In this document: piece after piece, positions 22,291 through 43,306 of the stretch
Numbering within the stretch: position 1 is the first letter of the stretch
How the letters are laid out: each line of letters starts with the position of its first letter
Virus record (IMG/VR): IMGVR_UViG_3300017914_000750
Span: 29,737-93,736 of that record
DNA length: 64,000 bases
From: a virus
Lineage: Duplodnaviria > Caudoviricetes
Reading direction: 5' to 3' (one strand)
Program-made: the position numbers and the translations under genes
The notes under the pieces: generated by a model
What the model saw: only the letters and a program-made list of their open reading frames with translations
Databases searched by the model: none
Told to the model about the DNA's origin: nothing

Positions 22291-22298
22291 TATTTATA
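22291..22298 (-). promoter_or_regulatory. late promoter TATAAATA (gp18)
   Basis: Exact consensus. Confidence 0.8.
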
Positions 22299-22317: not shown

Positions 22318-23922
22318 CTACCATTTTATCTCTACATCATTCTCTTTTGTATACCAACGGTCTCCATTATCGTCTACAAAGGTTACATCTTCGGGTTTTT
22401 CCCCTCCAAACACCCCTGCTGGTAATAAATCCTCTTCTATCATCTTCTGTTGTTCTGCATACAATAAGTCTTTGACCTGAGTATCCGTTAAATGGTAGAA
22501 GTAATCAGTGGTTATAAACCACGAAAATAATACTAAATTCATGACCATATCGTCATGATATCCCTTGTCTGCTTCAAAGGAATTACCCTTATTGACAAAG
22601 GTCATAAGCTCTGTTATAGTAGGTCTATCAACTACTGATAATCGATTTTCCTCTAATAGTTCTTTAAGAGTAGAACAACCGATTCTCTTAATCTTACGAT
22701 TTACAGATATTCCAATATCCTCAGCCTTTAACTGTCCTTGAGTAAACACATTTGGATATTCAATATCATAATGTAATTGAGTTGCAACTATACCACCTTC
22801 TGCATTATTTTCAATGATAACTAATGCCTCATTATAAGGTCTTACATATTTATTTATAATATCGGGAAACAGCATGGGACTTACCATGTCGTCTCGATAG
22901 GTTGCAACTTGTTTAAAAGGTTTACTTGTTACATCAAATATAGAGAATGTGGAAAAGTCCATACCTCTACCTTTTGCAACATCAACCGTGCAAACATAAT
23001 TATGTCCTTCAATCGGCTTCTGATATATACTCACACCGTCGCGATTCCACTCGGGGTCTTCGGACATCATACCTAACAAGGTATTAGAGTTAATTAGAGT
23101 ATTACCAGTTCCTAAGAATGAGTTACCATACTCTTGTTCAAACTGTGCTTCTGAGGTGTTTGCAATAGTTTGTTCTTTCCATTCCTCGTCTCTGCCTGGC
23201 ACATCATACCAATTGATTATGAAGTGTTTATATTCTGACTGTTCGTGAACTGCAGATTCGTATATCTTATGGAACATATTACCTACACCGTTTGCAGTTG
23301 AGGTAATGATAACCTTTGAATCTTTACCCGAGGTAATTACGGGATATGTTGCAGTATAGAATGTCTCTGCATCGTCTACAAAAGCAAACTCGTCCAAGTA
23401 TAGTAGATTGATAGACATACCACGAATCGAACTTGAACTTGTTGCAGCTGCAACTACTTTTGAGTCATTTGCAAACTCAATTGACCCTTTGTTTAAAATC
23501 TTTACGCCTGGTTGTAAAAAGAATGGAACAGACTCTAACATGGTTACGACCCTTGCAATCATTTCTCTTGCAATTGCACCTTTGTTAGCAAGAACTGCAA
23601 CGGTAACTTCGGGGTGAAATAATAGATACCATAATAAGTATGCACACGAAGTGATTGATTTACCACTCTGTCTACTTGCAAGAACTACATTAAATCTATT
23701 TGAATTATAGTGTTCTATGAGTTTATCTTGATATCCACGAAGTTTAAATGGAACCATACCTTCGTCAAGAGATATAATCTGAGTATAAGATTCAATAAAA
23801 TGCACGGGGTCTTGAGAACACTTCATGTATTCTTTCAATTCCTCTTCAGTATATTGAGTCTCAATACCAGCTCTCTTAATAAGAGTGTTACCGAGATATC
23901 CTTCGTTTGTTGGTTTAACCAT
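22318..23922 (-). CDS. gp17: terminase large subunit
   Basis: SRQSGKS, LYLDEFAF, STANG, HDDMVM. Confidence 0.97.
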   Translation of the reverse strand: MVKPTNEGYLGNTLIKRAGIETQYTEEELKEYMKCSQDPVHFIESYTQIISLDEGMVPFKLRGYQDKLIEHYNSNRFNVVLASRQSGKSITSCAYLLWYLLFHPEVTVAVLANKGAIAREMIARVVTMLESVPFFLQPGVKILNKGSIEFANDSKVVAAATSSSSIRGMSINLLYLDEFAFVDDAETFYTATYPVITSGKDSKVIITSTANGVGNMFHKIYESAVHEQSEYKHFIINWYDVPGRDEEWKEQTIANTSEAQFEQEYGNSFLGTGNTLINSNTLLGMMSEDPEWNRDGVSIYQKPIEGHNYVCTVDVAKGRGMDFSTFSIFDVTSKPFKQVATYRDDMVSPMLFPDIINKYVRPYNEALVIIENNAEGGIVATQLHYDIEYPNVFTQGQLKAEDIGISVNRKIKRIGCSTLKELLEENRLSVVDRPTITELMTFVNKGNSFEADKGYHDDMVMNLVLFSWFITTDYFYHLTDTQVKDLLYAEQQKMIEEDLLPAGVFGGEKPEDVTFVDDNGDRWYTKENDVEIKW

Positions 23923-24883
23923 ACATTCTCGTTGTAAAATCCCAATCGTAAGTCATTCTCCAATGAGTAAGACCCATATTGGTAAAATTAAATTTACCGT
24001 CAAATCCACATTCCCAACCTAACATTACTTTCTTGTCGGGGTCATGAAATTTTTCTCCACCTAATATATCACCTTCATATACTTGTTTCGTTATTTTAAA
24101 AGTATCTGTATAATCACACCATAGATTTTGGTTCCTAAAACCAGCTTGTTCCCATGCATGTTGTAAATCTGAAATCATATCTAGGTATGTGAGACCAGCT
24201 TTATCTAAATCACCACCATAATCTACTTTTGTATCTTCACCATACATTTTAGTTTGTTCTAGTTCGTATAGGTTTACAGTATTAGGATATAGTTTATCCA
24301 TTACTCCTCTTTCTTTTGCACTTTCAAATAAAGGAACTATACCCTCTCCATAAAAGTTATATGCAACCATTTCATGAATATAGATATCTGCTTCAGGCCA
24401 TTCTGCTCTATTGAAACAATCATGAATTATATTCCAATTAGGAAAACGACCTTTTAGATATACATTACTCCAAAAGTTTTTATCTATACCTATACATTTT
24501 TTTGCACCATGAAAGTCTGCAAGTGCTAAGAGACAACCAGTTCCTACTCCTAAATCACAAACAGTTTTACCCCTTGCATGTTCTTTAAAGAATTTTGAGT
24601 ATGCATTATTTCTATCTGCATCTCTTATCATTGCAGTATATCCTGTTCCTCGTTTAGTTAGATTACTGACTGCTTCATACCATAGTGGGTGTCCCATATC
24701 TATATGAGGAGGCATTTTTATTTCACTATCACTTTGAAACTGTTGTTTGAGTCTGAGAACTTTTAAATATTTATCCTCACCCATTTCAGTAAAATCAGGC
24801 TCAACATATGATATCGAACCCTGTTTCATGTCATGAATTACATATGGTTCGTCATTGTTGTTTTCTTTAGTCTGTTCCGTCAT
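23915..24883 (-). CDS. SAM-dependent methyltransferase, PRMT-like
   Basis: MIRDADRNNAY helix, VCDLGVGTG motif I, IHEMVAYNFYGEG double-E-like loop, C-terminal THW. Confidence 0.75.
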   Translation of the reverse strand: MTEQTKENNNDEPYVIHDMKQGSISYVEPDFTEMGEDKYLKVLRLKQQFQSDSEIKMPPHIDMGHPLWYEAVSNLTKRGTGYTAMIRDADRNNAYSKFFKEHARGKTVCDLGVGTGCLLALADFHGAKKCIGIDKNFWSNVYLKGRFPNWNIIHDCFNRAEWPEADIYIHEMVAYNFYGEGIVPLFESAKERGVMDKLYPNTVNLYELEQTKMYGEDTKVDYGGDLDKAGLTYLDMISDLQHAWEQAGFRNQNLWCDYTDTFKITKQVYEGDILGGEKFHDPDKKVMLGWECGFDGKFNFTNMGLTHWRMTYDWDFTTRMYG

Positions 24884-25277
24884 TTCCCTTTGATTTCTTC
24901 AAGAACTTTTGCAACTCACTTGTCGAACCGACATATAAATGGTTGTGTTGTGTCTTGATAGAACTATCCTCCTTTTCTAAATCCTTTAATTTTTTCTGTA
25001 TATCAATAAGCTTTTCTGCAGTATCAGATACAGTCTTAATTAACTGTCCAGCAACCTCGTATGCACGGGGGTGTTCTGTTTCTTTGGATAGTTCTAATAT
25101 ACCGTCTATTGCATCTTGTCCTCGTTCTACGAGGTTATAGAGGTTCTCACGGGCATATTTGTAATCGGTCTCAATGTTCTCTGACCTTTTAGGGACTTTG
25201 ACAATCTGAGTTTCTTTTTTAATATCAGAATTGATATCAAGAAGATTATCTAATTTTTCGTCTATTTCTTTTGTCAT
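24867..25277 (-). CDS. gp16: terminase small subunit
   Basis: DYKYARENL, HPRAYEVAGQLIK, VGSTSELQKFL. Confidence 0.93.
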   Translation of the reverse strand: MTKEIDEKLDNLLDINSDIKKETQIVKVPKRSENIETDYKYARENLYNLVERGQDAIDGILELSKETEHPRAYEVAGQLIKTVSDTAEKLIDIQKKLKDLEKEDSSIKTQHNHLYVGSTSELQKFLKKSKGNDGTD

Positions 25278-28009: not shown

Positions 28010-28056
28010 AATAGTATAATCCAGTTATTTCCTGCTTTATACTATTTATAACGATT

Positions 28057-28334: not shown

Positions 28335-29027
28335 CTACTTGACTATGTCGTAATCTTCATTCAATGGGAAGTGATTCCAGTCGGGGTCTATATCCATTGC
28401 ATGGTCATTACTCATGTTTAATTTATGAGAAACAACATTAAAGGATATAGAATATCTATCTTTTTCTGTTCTATTTGGTTCAACCATATGCATCATAGCA
28501 CTTGGAAACAATATTAAAGACCCTGTTGTAGGTCTTATTCTATATGTATCCATTTGTCTTACATTATTTGGAAAGTCTGATACTACTTTTGGGTCTTTAT
28601 CGAGTGCAACAAAGTCTCCTTCATCGCCGTCTCCTTTAATATAAAAAGCACCACTATACCAACAACCATTATGTAAATGGGGTTTATTCCATGCACCATT
28701 ATCATTTATATTTGCCCATGAGTTACCTATATCTATTTGAATTTTACCTGTATTGATAGCATGAAATCCACAAATTTCGTTGTTGTAAATATCTTTTAAT
28801 ACTCTCATTATTTTTGTAAATGCTGGGTGTCTATCACAACCGTCATTTGATTGCCAACCACTATATGCATTTGATATGTTTCTACCAACTGGGTCTTTCT
28901 TTCTCATACCGTCTACAGCTTCTCTCAACATATCACAATAATCTTCTGTAATCCTACCACTCTCAATAAGATTTTCTTCGTATACTATCGTTGGAAATAG
29001 TAATCTAATTCCCTTTTTCATCGTCAC
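28335..29027 (-). CDS. putative 2OG-Fe(II) oxygenase (TIGR02466-like)
   Basis: SWANIN, HLH, SGAFY, LILFPS.MMHMVEPN, RYSISFN. Confidence 0.85.
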   Translation of the reverse strand: MTMKKGIRLLFPTIVYEENLIESGRITEDYCDMLREAVDGMRKKDPVGRNISNAYSGWQSNDGCDRHPAFTKIMRVLKDIYNNEICGFHAINTGKIQIDIGNSWANINDNGAWNKPHLHNGCWYSGAFYIKGDGDEGDFVALDKDPKVVSDFPNNVRQMDTYRIRPTTGSLILFPSAMMHMVEPNRTEKDRYSISFNVVSHKLNMSNDHAMDIDPDWNHFPLNEDYDIVK

Positions 29028-29940
29028 CGTCCCAATTTAATTCTGTTCTTTTCTTTTGTTCAACTTTAAAATCAAACTCCATTTGTTCTTCTTTCTTATG
29101 CATAGGACACTCAGGTGGTGGAGTATCTTCTGAGAATAATTTTGCCTTATTAGTTTTTATCTTGGCATTTCTATAACCACCAATGTTTAATTTTTCTGAA
29201 GCTTTCCTCTGTATATATTCACCTGTTGCTGGGTCTATTTTCATATGTCCACCTTCCATTTGCCATTTTTGCATTGACCTATCATGTATACCATGTGTTT
29301 GATACCATTCATTTGATTCTGCATAGGTATAAGTTGCATGATATTCTTCTCTTTTATATGGGACAAATTGACATATAGGTTGTCCAGCTGGTATAATGAA
29401 AGAATGATTAACTTTAGGATAAAATATAATTTGTGCATTATCCATATTCATATTAAAGTTATCCGTATCAATGATACCTTGCCATACTGCAAAATATTGA
29501 TTTTGAAATAAAAAAGGGTCTATAAAGAATGTGGAATACCCTTCGGGTGTTGTAATGTTCCACCTTTGACTTATTTTAAATGCGTCTTTGACTGGACAAT
29601 CTTCACCCATGTATTCAAATATATCTTCAAATTGTGAAGACCCATGTGAAGGTGAACGGATAGGACTATTAGGAGAGGTTACGAATATTTCATTTTCTTC
29701 GGGAAAATTCCAATCATGACCATTCATAACTGGTATATCTTGAGTTGCAATTATATACCAACCTAGTTTTAAATAATCGTCCATGGCTGGACATGACCTT
29801 AGAGTTTGAACTATTTGACCCCTATGGTGAACTTTTACTTTTGCTTTCTTCCACCATTCGGGGTGATAGTTCTTTGCAAGAACTGGTCTAAAGTTCTCAA
29901 AAGCACTTCCATCGAATGTTCTAAAATCAATTGTAGGCAT
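29005..29940 (-). CDS. hypothetical protein of the CP..D..G type seen beside phage 2OG-oxygenases (DUF6065-like)
   Basis: CPAMDDYLKLGW, WNITTPEGYS, GIIDTD, AGQPICQFVPYKRE. Confidence 0.55.
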   Translation of the reverse strand: MPTIDFRTFDGSAFENFRPVLAKNYHPEWWKKAKVKVHHRGQIVQTLRSCPAMDDYLKLGWYIIATQDIPVMNGHDWNFPEENEIFVTSPNSPIRSPSHGSSQFEDIFEYMGEDCPVKDAFKISQRWNITTPEGYSTFFIDPFLFQNQYFAVWQGIIDTDNFNMNMDNAQIIFYPKVNHSFIIPAGQPICQFVPYKREEYHATYTYAESNEWYQTHGIHDRSMQKWQMEGGHMKIDPATGEYIQRKASEKLNIGGYRNAKIKTNKAKLFSEDTPPPECPMHKKEEQMEFDFKVEQKKRTELNWDGDDEKGN

Positions 29941-30640
29941 ATCTATCCTGTTTATCTAGTAGTCTAACTTCGTCTCCTCTCAAGACTATAGACCTTCTAT
30001 CTATGTAGTTTGCATTTGAAGAAGGTGCTTCTGCACCATGTGGTATTCTACCGTCAAACATTAATAATCTATTCGGTTTAAATGCAACTCTTCCTATTTC
30101 AAACTCATTCATGTGGTCTTCTGTTCCAGTCTCTACATGTTGACTATAAAATCTTAAATCTCCACCCCAGTTATCATTCCAAAATGTATTTGTATAATAT
30201 AGAAAAGATAAATTAAAATCATCATCAAGACTACAATCAGCATGACAGCTTCCATTTTGACCCATAGTTTGAGAGTTGGTTCCCATATATTGAAATCGTA
30301 TCCAATCAAAAGAGAAATCAGTTCTTATTTTCTTATCTATGTAATCCATAAAATATGGATAGTAAAAGTTTGATTTACATTTTACTTTTTGTCCGTTGTT
30401 TGCTCTAAAATATGAAGCACCCCATAATTCATGACTAGGTAATCCACCTCTTTTTCTATTATCTACAGTTTGAACACAATTGTTCTTTTGCCAATTTGTT
30501 TGATTTCTTAGAAAGGAGTCTGTATGGTGGTGTAATTCAGCTGACAAATAATTGTCAAAGATATAAACTTTATTTCCTAGTGGGAGTTCTTCAATATAGA
30601 ACGGTGAATCACATTCTATTACTTCAATAGAATTAACCAT
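29927..30640 (-). CDS. 2OG-Fe(II) oxygenase
   Basis: HAD, LYY...WGGDLRF, FKPNRLLMFDGRIPHGA, RRSIV. Confidence 0.85.
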   Translation of the reverse strand: MVNSIEVIECDSPFYIEELPLGNKVYIFDNYLSAELHHHTDSFLRNQTNWQKNNCVQTVDNRKRGGLPSHELWGASYFRANNGQKVKCKSNFYYPYFMDYIDKKIRTDFSFDWIRFQYMGTNSQTMGQNGSCHADCSLDDDFNLSFLYYTNTFWNDNWGGDLRFYSQHVETGTEDHMNEFEIGRVAFKPNRLLMFDGRIPHGAEAPSSNANYIDRRSIVLRGDEVRLLDKQDRYAYN

Positions 30641-33590: not shown

Positions 33591-35003
33591 CTACTTCTGT
33601 TGTCTGTTATGAGCAAGTATATCATGTGCAAAATAGTTTTGATTTCCACTTACTTTTGTTAAATGGTATACTTTATGTAGACCTTCTAGTTTTTCTATAC
33701 AGTCGACTGCATGTTTAGGTGTGTTTTGTAAAATACATGATATTGTATCAATGATTTTATCACCTTCTTCAACTACACCTGAGATTTCTCCACCCCATGC
33801 TGTTCCTTCTGCAACTTCTTGTTCCCAATCTTCCATGCTTATAACACACCAACCTTTTCCGTCAACTTTGATTGGGTGTCCACCTGTTAGTTTTACACCT
33901 CTACCACCGAAAGATATTTCGTATAATTCACATTCTCTTGGAACCATTAGTTCTTCTACTTCACCTACCATGATTGTTAAATTCTCATCTGCAGTCATAA
34001 CCATATCACCAACTTCAACTTTTTGAATTGGCATATATGAACCGTCTTCCATCCAAATCATAGTATCTTCTGCGAAGCAACCACCACCTCGACCACCGCC
34101 TGGGAAGAAGACTGGTTGTCTTGCTTGGAAGGTGAATGGGTTTTGGAATGCACCAGTATTCGGTTGCTGAAGGTTTGCAATATAGGTAAATGGTTGCTGA
34201 GCACTTCTAATATTCGGTTGTTGAATATTCGCAGGATATGTAAATGGTTGTCTTGCACTTCTAATATTCGGTTGTTGAATATTTGCTGGGTAAGTAAACG
34301 GTTGCTGAGCATTTCTGATATTCGGTTGTTGAATATTTGCTGGGTAAGTAAACGGTTGCTGAGCATTTCTGATATTCGGTTGTTGAATATTAGCAGGATA
34401 TGTAAAAGGAACCTGACTATTTCTAATATTAGGTTCTTGTGCGCTTACTGGATTCTGATATGTAAACGGTGACCTATGGTCATATGTAAAAGGTGACCTT
34501 GCAATAGCTTGATAAGTTGAAGGAGACCTATAATTATATGTGAAAGGTGACCTATGAGAGTAAGTATTAGGCTGTCTTGCCTGTCTTATATTCGGTTCCT
34601 GTGCGTTTGCAATGTAAGGATAAGGTTGTTGTGCTGACCTTATGTTTGGTTCCTGTGCGTTTGCAATGTAAGGATAAGGTTGTTGTGCATTCCTGATATT
34701 AGGCTCTTGAGCATTTGCAATATAAGGGTAAGGCTGCTGAGCACTACGAATATTGGGTTCTTGAGCATTTGCAATATAAGGATAAGGTTGTTGTGCTGAC
34801 CTTATGTTTGGTTCTTGAGCATTTGCAATATAAGGATATGGAACCTGAGTTAATTCTTGACCTGAAGCGTTATTCCACCCTGAAGGTGTTTTAATATAAA
34901 TTTGGTCAACTGCTTTCCAGTTGTTAGGCCCTGTCTTTACCCAAGCTCCTTGGGTTTTGTTCCACCCAGTAGGGGTCTTAACCTTTTGATTACCTGATGC
35001 CAT
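33591..35003 (-). CDS. fibre-associated repeat protein with C-terminal Hint domain
   Basis: Trp-rich N-terminal cap (GW...W...IYIKTPSGW), 27 repeat units, GGGRGGG linker, Hint domain. Confidence 0.85.
   Translation of the reverse strand: MASGNQKVKTPTGWNKTQGAWVKTGPNNWKAVDQIYIKTPSGWNNASGQELTQVPYPYIANAQEPNIRSAQQPYPYIANAQEPNIRSAQQPYPYIANAQEPNIRNAQQPYPYIANAQEPNIRSAQQPYPYIANAQEPNIRQARQPNTYSHRSPFTYNYRSPSTYQAIARSPFTYDHRSPFTYQNPVSAQEPNIRNSQVPFTYPANIQQPNIRNAQQPFTYPANIQQPNIRNAQQPFTYPANIQQPNIRSARQPFTYPANIQQPNIRSAQQPFTYIANLQQPNTGAFQNPFTFQARQPVFFPGGGRGGGCFAEDTMIWMEDGSYMPIQKVEVGDMVMTADENLTIMVGEVEELMVPRECELYEISFGGRGVKLTGGHPIKVDGKGWCVISMEDWEQEVAEGTAWGGEISGVVEEGDKIIDTISCILQNTPKHAVDCIEKLEGLHKVYHLTKVSGNQNYFAHDILAHNRQQK
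33606..34079 (-). other. Hint (intein-like) autoprocessing domain
   Basis: Block A CFAEDT, IQKVEVGDMV, block B TGGHP, block F/G VYHL...NYFAHDILAHN; followed by RQQK and stop. Confidence 0.9.
34116..34841 (-). repeat. coding tandem repeats (54-nt period blocks)
   Basis: PYPYIANAQEPNIRSAQQ x5 and PFTYPANIQQPNIRNAQQ x4-5. Confidence 0.9.
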
Positions 35004-41654: not shown

Positions 41655-41674
41655 AAAACTATTTATACAAAAAG

Positions 41675-43306
41675 TTAGCCCTTAGAGAATTGTGCGTTTG
41701 GAACTGATTGGTGAATCTTTTCTACCGTTCCACTATCGTTTACATAAACCTCTTCTACTTTTTCAACACTTCCACTATTATTTCTGAAAATACCCTTAAC
41801 TTTTGCTACTGGGCCAATAGGTCTTGTAGTAGAATAAGGTGTTTGTCCTATTGAAGGAGACCTATGGTCATATGACACCTGATAGTTAAACTGATATGGG
41901 AACGGTTGTCTTGCAGGCAAGATATTAGGTTCTTGGTGGTTATCAGTTCTTTGATATATTGAAGGTGACCTATGATTATAGAAATTAGGTTGTCTAGTCG
42001 CTGCAATATATGGATACGGTTGTCCAGCATCTCTAATATTTGGTTCTTGTTGATTTGCAATATAAGGATAAGGATTTTGTCTATTTGCAATATACGGACT
42101 TGATTCTTGAGCATTTGCAATATACGGACTTTGTTTACTTGCAATATATGGACTTGTGTTCTGAATACTTGCAATATACGGATACCTTGTTTGTTTTATA
42201 GTCGGGTTCTGTTGTTGTGCTTGTGCAATATAAGGACTTGGTTGTTGTGCAATAAAAGGACTTCGTTGTTGTGCTTGTCCAATAGTCGGGTTTTGTATAT
42301 TTGCTTGATATGTATACGGTTGTTGTTGACTGATTATTGGAGTCGTTCCTATTGCTTGATATGTAAACGGGTTTGGTTGTTGCGTTTGTGCTGAACCAGG
42401 CGACCTATATTGATAATCAATAGGTTCACCGTATCTTCCACCACTTGGCCTTATTCCCCATTCGGGATTCTGTGCTTGTCCGATAACTGGGACTGGATTC
42501 TGTGCTTGTGCAATATAAGGATACGGTTGTTGCACCTGATTACCTTGAGCAGTAGAAGGGACTTGATAAGGCCCAACGGCTGGTGACCTATATGAATATA
42601 TTGTCCAATATGGGTCTATCTCGGGTTCAAATCTTGAAGGATATGGTGGAGTATAAAAAGGTGGAGCTCCAATCTGAGTAGTCCCAGTGGAGGGCACCTG
42701 CTGGTTGCCTTGAGCAGTAGTTTGAATATTATACGGAGCTCCTCCTGCTTGTGCTACTGGTCTTCTTGCAGCTTGAACTGGGTAAGTCGAAGGGTTTGCA
42801 TTTTGAGTATTATAAGGACTTGGGTCTCTTGCATCATACGAACTCCTTGCTTGTCCTTGATAAGTAAATGGGTTCGGTGACCTATGCTGATAAGGTGTTT
42901 GTCCTCTTGCCTGATAAGTAGACGGTGACCTTTCCGTTGCATTATAGATAACTGGTTGTCTATGTTGATATGTAAATGGACTTTGACTTTGTGCTTGATA
43001 AGTTGTAGGTGTTTGTCCTTGTGCTTGATATGTGCTTGGAGACTGGAATTGATATGTTATTGGTGTTGTTCCTATTGCAATATAGAATCCAGGCGATTGG
43101 ATACTTCTAATAAAAGGGTGTTGTCTATTTGCAGTATTCTGAGAAGTAAAAGGACTTCTTGCACTAAAAGTAAAAGGATTTTGTCCTTGTCTTAAAGTTT
43201 GTCTTATTGTTTGTCTTGATACTGGGTTCTGAACTTGTATAGTTGTCTGACCCTGATAGGGTTGTTGAAAACTCGAACCTATATTTACATAAATTTCGTC
43301 AGCCAT
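41675..43306 (-). CDS. Pro/Gln/Tyr-rich repeat fibre protein with internal mirror symmetry
   Basis: Same unit vocabulary as the 32770/33591 pair; C-terminal cap VEEVYVNDSG. Confidence 0.8.
   Translation of the reverse strand: MADEIYVNIGSSFQQPYQGQTTIQVQNPVSRQTIRQTLRQGQNPFTFSARSPFTSQNTANRQHPFIRSIQSPGFYIAIGTTPITYQFQSPSTYQAQGQTPTTYQAQSQSPFTYQHRQPVIYNATERSPSTYQARGQTPYQHRSPNPFTYQGQARSSYDARDPSPYNTQNANPSTYPVQAARRPVAQAGGAPYNIQTTAQGNQQVPSTGTTQIGAPPFYTPPYPSRFEPEIDPYWTIYSYRSPAVGPYQVPSTAQGNQVQQPYPYIAQAQNPVPVIGQAQNPEWGIRPSGGRYGEPIDYQYRSPGSAQTQQPNPFTYQAIGTTPIISQQQPYTYQANIQNPTIGQAQQRSPFIAQQPSPYIAQAQQQNPTIKQTRYPYIASIQNTSPYIASKQSPYIANAQESSPYIANRQNPYPYIANQQEPNIRDAGQPYPYIAATRQPNFYNHRSPSIYQRTDNHQEPNILPARQPFPYQFNYQVSYDHRSPSIGQTPYSTTRPIGPVAKVKGIFRNNSGSVEKVEEVYVNDSGTVEKIHQSVPNAQFSKG

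Follow-up and report, generated by a model that had tools for sequence, protein, structure and literature searches.

To our knowledge, protein arginine methyltransferases (PRMTs) are regarded as enzymes essentially of eukaryotes, and little work has addressed the methylation of protein arginines in bacteria and their viruses. In PRMT1, a helix carrying M48, D51 and R54 covers S-adenosylmethionine (SAM), as its structures indicate; across the family an acidic residue after motif I (the post-I position) contacts the SAM ribose, and PRMT1-type enzymes prefer RGG/GAR motifs in their substrates. Here we examine a 322-amino-acid PRMT homologue encoded in a 64,000-nucleotide stretch of DNA (hereafter the window, meaning the whole stretch that was analysed), which spans bases 29737-93736 of an IMG/VR virus record (93.7 kb in all) from a marine T4-like phage that has not been cultured. 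This stretch comprises the late/structural region of the myophage, with every gene on the minus strand, and the methyltransferase gene sits between those for the small (TerS, upstream) and large (TerL, downstream) terminase subunits. Our analyses show that this gene is homologous to PRMTs, conserves their catalytic motifs, holds a syntenic position throughout a phage clade and is under purifying selection. We propose that its long form uses SAM to methylate arginine of a protein at the omega nitrogen, a reading of the sequence and the modelled fold to which we assign a probability of about 0.6.

The closest described systems are the type I PRMTs (PRMT1/Hmt1, PRMT3 and PRMT8; PDB 1or8, 1g6q and 2fyt) and the type III enzyme PRMT7 of Trypanosoma brucei (4m38, 4m36 and 5eku). 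Like the type I enzymes, the phage protein joins a Rossmann SAM domain bearing motif I and the post-I acidic residue to an M-x2-D-x2-R-x3-Y helix, a double-E loop of identical spacing, a Pro-containing motif after that loop and a THW-like motif near the C-terminus; type I PRMTs also provide its best sequence-profile matches, and their fold matches reach Z values of ~13.5. Unlike them, it is encoded within a bacteriophage terminase operon, differs in the N-terminal alpha-X region, shares only ~20% identity and has a C-terminal domain of ~125 residues (versus ~170) that is not recognizable as PRMT_C. T. brucei PRMT7, which is a compact, single-module PRMT as the phage protein is, gave the best structural match (Z 15.4, root-mean-square deviation (rmsd) 4.2 Å, 222 aligned residues over 27-318), although its sequence match was weak (E 0.005).

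Catalytic motifs, profiles and fold

A preliminary description of this DNA had listed a SAM motif, an M..D..R..AY motif, a double-E-like loop and a terminal THW in the protein, and on checking the translations we found each of them in its place (Table 1). The MIRDADRNNAY helix matches the M48/D51/R54 helix of PRMT1 in the alignment. All three glycines of the GxGxG signature (G112, G114 and G116) are invariant among 27 family members, and position 134 is Asp or Glu in every member of the family. The two glutamates of the double-E loop HEMVAYNFYGEG, E171 and E180, are nine residues apart (eight intervening), which is the spacing found in PRMT1. Motif IV reads D-I-Y-I-H-E-M and is followed by the second Glu, an arrangement of PRMT type; it is not the (D/N/S)-P-P-(Y/F/W) version of motif IV that marks amino-methyltransferases of nucleic acids and glutamine (N6-adenine, N4-cytosine and HemK/PrmC).

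Sequence comparisons at increasing depth converged on the same family. When the single protein was compared with the sequences of solved structures by phmmer, PRMTs came first (E 3e-4 to 0.03) and made up 32 of the 34 best distinct sequences. A profile built from nine homologues returned more than 50 top matches among solved structures, all of them to PRMT1, 3, 8, CARM1, 7, 2 or 6, with E values down to 1.1e-10 and alignments that covered the M..D..R..Y helix, motif I, the double-E loop and the Pro motif that follows it. Aligning 27 phage sequences with nine cellular PRMTs (among them the NCBI-named type I PRMT of Entamoeba marina), hhalign gave a probability of 99.95% and an E value of 1.8e-37 over 136 columns, and it placed the phage H-E...E-G on the cellular S-E...E-G, that is, double-E loop on double-E loop.

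The fold agrees with the sequence. An AlphaFold2 (AF2) model of the 322-residue protein (predicted local distance difference test score (pLDDT) 77, predicted template-modelling score (pTM) 0.78) had PRMTs as all of its best 50 Foldseek matches in the PDB, at E values of ~1e-8. VIA-align likewise returned PRMTs in all 50 rows (Z 13.0-15.4, rmsd 3.2-4.2 Å, 190-222 aligned residues spanning 72-320). T. brucei PRMT7 headed these matches with other PRMT types effectively tied, so the Z values do not indicate the product type (monomethylarginine (MMA), asymmetric dimethylarginine (ADMA) or symmetric dimethylarginine (SDMA)). The likeness of the protein to PRMTs is far beyond chance, and the PRMT reading of its catalytic half is strongly supported. 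The earlier suggestion that the gene encodes a PRMT-like enzyme, rather than a methyltransferase of DNA, small molecules or lysine, is thus borne out by profiles and fold search alike, with no other methyltransferase class supplying the best structural match in Foldseek or VIA-align.

The nearest bacterial protein methyltransferase family, judged by Pfam and NCBIfam cross-matches of family members in the SAM-binding region, is PrmA, the methyltransferase of ribosomal protein L11; the named Entamoeba PRMT cross-matches PrmA equally well. PrmA has no double-E loop and carries an L11-binding N-domain. We rejected a PrmA identity for the phage protein: Pfam PrmA gave no match at E<=1, and the NCBIfam prmA models scored 22 bits against a cut-off of 188, over 40 residues of the SAM motif only.

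A phage family in the terminase slot

A word-indexed protein search retrieved eight relatives only; an exhaustive profile search yielded 802 matches at E<=1e-3, with ~35 clusters of 235-290 residues matching over their full length. Every one of these full-length relatives comes from a metagenome, the contigs reaching 100-195 kb, and the best database label given to them is 'predicted RNA methylase'. Neighbours in the ESM Atlas are viral (Uroviricota) clusters of 250-290 residues, and IMG/VR contributes more than 60 distinct sequences to the family, beside several Atlas clusters that have 50-160 members each.

At ~90 IMG/VR loci belonging to one clade of marine T4-like myophages, the slot immediately between TerS and TerL is filled by a homologue; gp13-gp14-gp15 lie upstream, and the sheath, tube and portal genes downstream. 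The protein in this slot is 26-48% identical to that of the window (closest relatives excepted), while the flanking proteins are 60-99% identical. Since a divergent protein occupies a fixed place between well-conserved flanks, the gene is ancestral to the clade, and its evolution is much faster than that of its neighbours. The same TerS-X-TerL order was seen in a distant phage (L082, TerL 30% identical), and more remote family members are located in replication modules. One of these, a 589-residue protein of another phage (L092:3990-5759), consists of a ferrochelatase-like N-terminal part (phrog_2954) fused with a full PRMT-like domain in which every catalytic residue is present; its gene lies between nrdA and nrdB, which encode the large and small subunits of ribonucleotide reductase, and is a second case of a family member placed between two subunit genes of an enzyme.

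Querying 50,697 phage records by tblastn with the window protein and a relative (P0015) revealed no relative in any cultured phage. C48C1 (Kyanoviridae, TerL 55% identical), the closest phage in culture, lacks a gene in this slot, and its TerS directly overlaps TerL. A scan of 185,579 prokaryote genomes produced a single relative, a phage fragment of the same clade in a Flavobacteriaceae metagenome-assembled genome (MAG). This 11-kb fragment (L124, PACV01000026.1) carries a short-form slot gene, and its binning is an artefact or, at most, a weak hint of the host.

Slot proteins exist in intact, intermediate and short forms. The long forms (235-322 residues; ~45 distinct sequences in our table of residues at catalytic positions) keep D88, R91, Y95, GxGxG, the acidic residue at 134, D166, E171, E180, P200, W290 and W308. 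In the 27-sequence alignment, E171, W308 and GxGxG are invariant and D88, Y95, D166 and E180 nearly so, and ~40 further IMG/VR long forms follow the same pattern; R91 is Arg, rarely Lys, in all long forms. The short forms, of 178-202 residues, end soon after the Rossmann core and make up a subgroup that is nested within the clade by flank identity. They have lost R91, both glutamates and the whole C-terminal domain, and they retain GxGxG and the post-I acidic residue, as well as the slot itself and the overlap with TerS. In several of these phages (L010:5541-6113; also L011, L014-L016 and L035), an extra open reading frame (ORF) of ~190 residues, with no Pfam family, fills the TerS-TerL gap after a short form of 188 residues. 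Between the two extremes stand P0006 (276 residues), with E...D in the loop and TTW at the C-terminal motif, and L008 (269 residues), with E171G, S-F in place of H-W, and R91 also lost.

Ratios of nonsynonymous to synonymous substitution rates (dN/dS) were 0.16-0.26 between long forms and 0.10-0.18 for most short-form pairs. These low values indicate that both forms are maintained genes under purifying selection. The joint loss of the catalytic residues in short and dead forms further suggests that these residues behave as a single unit under selection, a point in favour of genuine catalysis by the long forms. In the short-form subgroup, the slot gene has turned into one for a non-catalytic protein, so the N-terminal half probably also has a role independent of methyl transfer. 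The PRMT1 prozyme of T. brucei and other dead PRMT paralogues (6dnz) offer a precedent, having lost catalytic residues and been kept under selection; the prozyme, however, acts alongside a catalytically active paralogue in its cell, whereas the examined fragments of short-form phages contain no second, active copy.

The layout of the locus bears on when the enzyme would be made. The methyltransferase ATG lies 17 nucleotides ahead of the TerS stop, so that the last 17 nucleotides of TerS overlap the start of the gene, and an AGGG-type ribosome-binding site precedes it. At the other end, the methyltransferase stop and the TerL ATG overlap by 8 nucleotides (ATGgtTAA). The window holds 13 exact matches to TATAAATA, all 13 on the coding (minus) strand, where 7 would be expected by chance over both strands; many lie just upstream of gene starts (e.g. 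28043-28050, 22291-22298 and 41660-41667), and the set fits T4-type late promoters. The first of these is the closest such site upstream of the gp13-gp14-gp15-TerS-methyltransferase-TerL string, and the following one precedes the sheath gene. From these consensus matches, the methyltransferase gene appears to be part of a gp13-gp14-gp15-TerS-X-TerL late unit. Because no late-promoter motif belongs to this gene alone and both terminase genes overlap it, it is probably expressed late, its translation coupled to that of TerS and TerL.

Contigs from marine RNA libraries (three studies) match only parts of the methyltransferase ORF. Two of them match the window without a difference at 23780-24055, and another runs over 23623-23964, from the 3' end of the methyltransferase gene into TerL. 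Such contigs are compatible with transcription, but may also reflect DNA carry-over, and stretches that no contig covers carry no information. Two genes for 2-oxoglutarate (2OG)-Fe(II) oxygenases adjoin the neck genes (window positions 28335-29027 and 29927-30640), which together with the methyltransferase suggests that the late region encodes several protein-modifying enzymes.

Table 1 Positions of the methyltransferase gene, its motifs, its neighbours and the proposed substrate motifs in the window
Feature	Position	Strand	Basis or remark
PRMT-family methyltransferase homologue, compact, 322 residues, long form with intact catalytic set	23915..24883	-	ORF, profile and fold comparison
N-terminal helix motif MIRDADRNNAY (M85-x2-D88-x2-R91-x3-Y95)	24599..24631	-	Aligns to PRMT helix in profile comparisons
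SAM-binding motif I, VCDLGVGTG (GxGxG = G112, G114, G116)	24536..24562	-	Aligned to PRMT motif
D134, acidic post-I residue, end of strand 2	24482..24484	-	Aligned with PRMT GID/GVD/GIE position
Double-E loop HEMVAYNFYGEG (H170-E171 ... E180-G181)	24341..24376	-	Column for column on PRMT double-E loop
C-terminal domain, residues 196-322	23918..24298	-	Shorter than PRMT barrel/oligomerization domain, without sequence likeness
THW motif, residues 306-308	23960..23968	-	14 residues before C-terminus
TerS (gp16-like)	24867..25277	-	Pfam DNA_Packaging, phrog_445
TerL (gp17-like)	22318..23922	-	Terminase_6N/6C
T4-type late-promoter-like TATAAATA, upstream of gp13	28043..28050	-	Consensus match only
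GGGRGGG directly before Hint-domain Cys (ORF 33591-35003)	34080..34100	-	Substrate proposed earlier; Arg not conserved
GGRYG in fibre protein (ORF 41675-43306)	42428..42442	-	Substrate proposed earlier; not conserved in orthologues

Reaction, target and alternatives

In the reaction we envisage, the Rossmann motif I would bind SAM, with D134 holding the ribose and R91 the SAM carboxylate. E171 and E180 of the double-E loop would position the substrate guanidinium, as in PRMTs, and a D88-H307 contact may close the pocket by analogy with PRMT1. We take these residue roles to be those seen in the PRMT1 structures 1or8, 1ori and 1orh. One or a few proteins would then receive methyl groups from SAM on the omega-nitrogen of arginine, with the methyltransferase presumably made late, together with TerS and TerL and coupled to their translation. 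Our best guess for the target would be a packaging or virion protein of the phage, or a host protein met late in infection. A narrower version, in which the whole clade of abundant marine T4-like phages has its own arginine methyltransferase as an accessory of packaging or head completion (acting on terminase, portal, neck or packaged proteins) and one subgroup has a pseudoenzyme that keeps just a structural or SAM-binding role, is tentative, and we consider it rather unlikely in that specific form.

Several results weigh against arginine methylation by a PRMT-like enzyme. Searches of the 322-residue protein in Pfam, PHROGs and NCBIfam gave only sub-threshold, generic methyltransferase matches: Methyltransf_23 alone in Pfam, no family in PHROGs and 22-bit matches on the SAM motif, far below threshold, in NCBIfam. 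Met85, at the position of PRMT1 Met48, is kept only in the subgroup of the window, the wider family having mostly Cys. Many relatives lack the catalytic residues, which implies that catalysis is dispensable. We also looked for arginines that track the state of the enzyme, being conserved in both groups of phages with an intact enzyme and lost in phages with a dead or short one, and found none in gp13, gp14, gp15, TerS, TerL, sheath, tube or portal, a negative of little weight because phylogeny confounds the comparison.

The C-terminal domain adds to these points. Pfam PRMT_C matched none of 31 phage members, whereas the cellular control did match, and an hhalign comparison of the C-terminal domain with PRMTs reached a probability of 1.7%, aligning only a Y-P-N linker and nothing at THW. 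A model of the isolated domain (11-sequence alignment, pLDDT 65) had no Foldseek match at E<=0.001, and its best hit in a wide VIA-align search had a Z of 2.7, with no PRMT found. A C-terminal domain so unlike PRMT_C may mean that the substrate-binding half works differently. On the other side, the full-length model superposes on PRMTs through residue 320, W308 is invariant and H307 usual in the phage family, and a plain MAFFT alignment puts the phage THW on the THW of a cellular PRMT. Superposition and alignment would make this motif the equivalent of the PRMT THW loop, which the profile comparison does not support. Taken by itself, the C-terminal domain thus speaks neither for a PRMT barrel nor for another fold. 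The hallmarks invoked in the preliminary description therefore hold for the catalytic motifs, which profiles and fold both support; for THW and the barrel, the full-length superposition agrees and the profiles and the domain-alone model do not. The phage family is a compact, divergent branch that combines a bona fide PRMT catalytic domain with a reduced C-terminal domain that is at most tentatively homologous.

Alternatives to arginine methylation of a protein differ in which of these features they accommodate. The protein might be mainly non-catalytic, a SAM-binding or terminase-associated accessory in which methyl transfer is a dispensable relic. The short forms and L008 fit this idea, as they lack the catalytic Glu and R91 and keep GxGxG and D134 under purifying selection, with the slot and TerS overlaps retained, and dead PRMT paralogues with structural roles do exist, the T. 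brucei prozyme itself being among our profile and fold matches. We nonetheless consider it unlikely for the window protein, which, like ~40 other long forms, conserves every catalytic residue at 26-48% overall identity, a pattern difficult to account for unless catalysis has been selected. A C-terminal domain so divergent and short, which may not form the PRMT peptide groove, would also suit an acceptor that is not a protein, such as free arginine, another free guanidino compound or some other small molecule, and the conserved double-E loop needs just a guanidinium group. The structural and sequence neighbours are, however, all protein arginine methyltransferases, and the gene lies in a packaging and neck operon with no biosynthetic genes nearby, leaving a small-molecule acceptor quite unlikely. 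Methylation of nucleic acid (DNA or RNA), perhaps of DNA during packaging, could be read from the location between the terminase genes, from the 'predicted RNA methylase' names of relatives in IMG and from weak, sub-threshold matches to RrnaAD, FtsJ, Erm and mad2 (the last a defence-system methylase found by PADLOC), all confined to the SAM-binding region. Yet motif IV is D-I-Y-I-H-E plus a second Glu rather than (D/N)PP(Y/F), PRMT matches are better by many orders of magnitude and extend through the double-E loop, and no nucleic-acid methyltransferase is among the top 50 fold matches in Foldseek or VIA-align; we judge this activity very unlikely.

As to which protein would be methylated, the preliminary description had proposed that the phage modifies arginines of its own virion proteins, at GGGRGGG before a Hint cleavage site and at GGRYG in a fibre tip loop. 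Both motifs are present in the window, the RGG/GAR preference of PRMT1-type enzymes would suit them, and expression of the enzyme probably falls in the late phase, as for the structural genes. However, a 130-kb relative (G001) has an intact, 299-residue enzyme, yet the orthologous junction ahead of its Hint domain is Gly-rich with no Arg, and neither RGG nor GRG occurs anywhere in that orthologue. Homologues in four other phages (G002-G005) stop after the poly-Gly without a Hint domain, and the fibre orthologues of G001, G003 and G004 contain no GGRYG or any RGG-like motif. The motifs are thus private to one lineage and the enzyme is clade-wide, so the proposal is not supported, and we regard methylation at these two sites as highly improbable. 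In the protein encoded at 33591-35003 and its counterparts (L036-L040), the poly-Gly run is conserved and the Hint domain is not, several orthologues ending a few residues past the run.

Significance of a viral PRMT branch

A full-text search of the literature, with coverage that was incomplete and so is no proof of absence, found no paper on phage-encoded or prokaryotic PRMTs. What is new here is a compact branch of viral PRMTs that keeps to one slot of the terminase operon, accompanied by natural pseudoenzyme derivatives. The phage family holds a complete PRMT catalytic signature within only ~250-320 residues, and its place between the terminase subunits is fixed. An active enzyme of this kind would be a minimal PRMT on which structure and mechanism could be studied and would offer direct access to a new post-translational modification in phages; the family also bears on the evolutionary origin of PRMTs. 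The finding would surprise specialists and is directly testable. If the enzyme did serve as a packaging accessory, no PRMT system encoded by a phage would precede it, and arginine methylation would for the first time be tied to the packaging of viral genomes in prokaryotic viruses. The series from intact through point-inactivated to truncated pseudoenzyme, all in one syntenic slot, constitutes a natural evolutionary experiment on the non-catalytic roles of these proteins.

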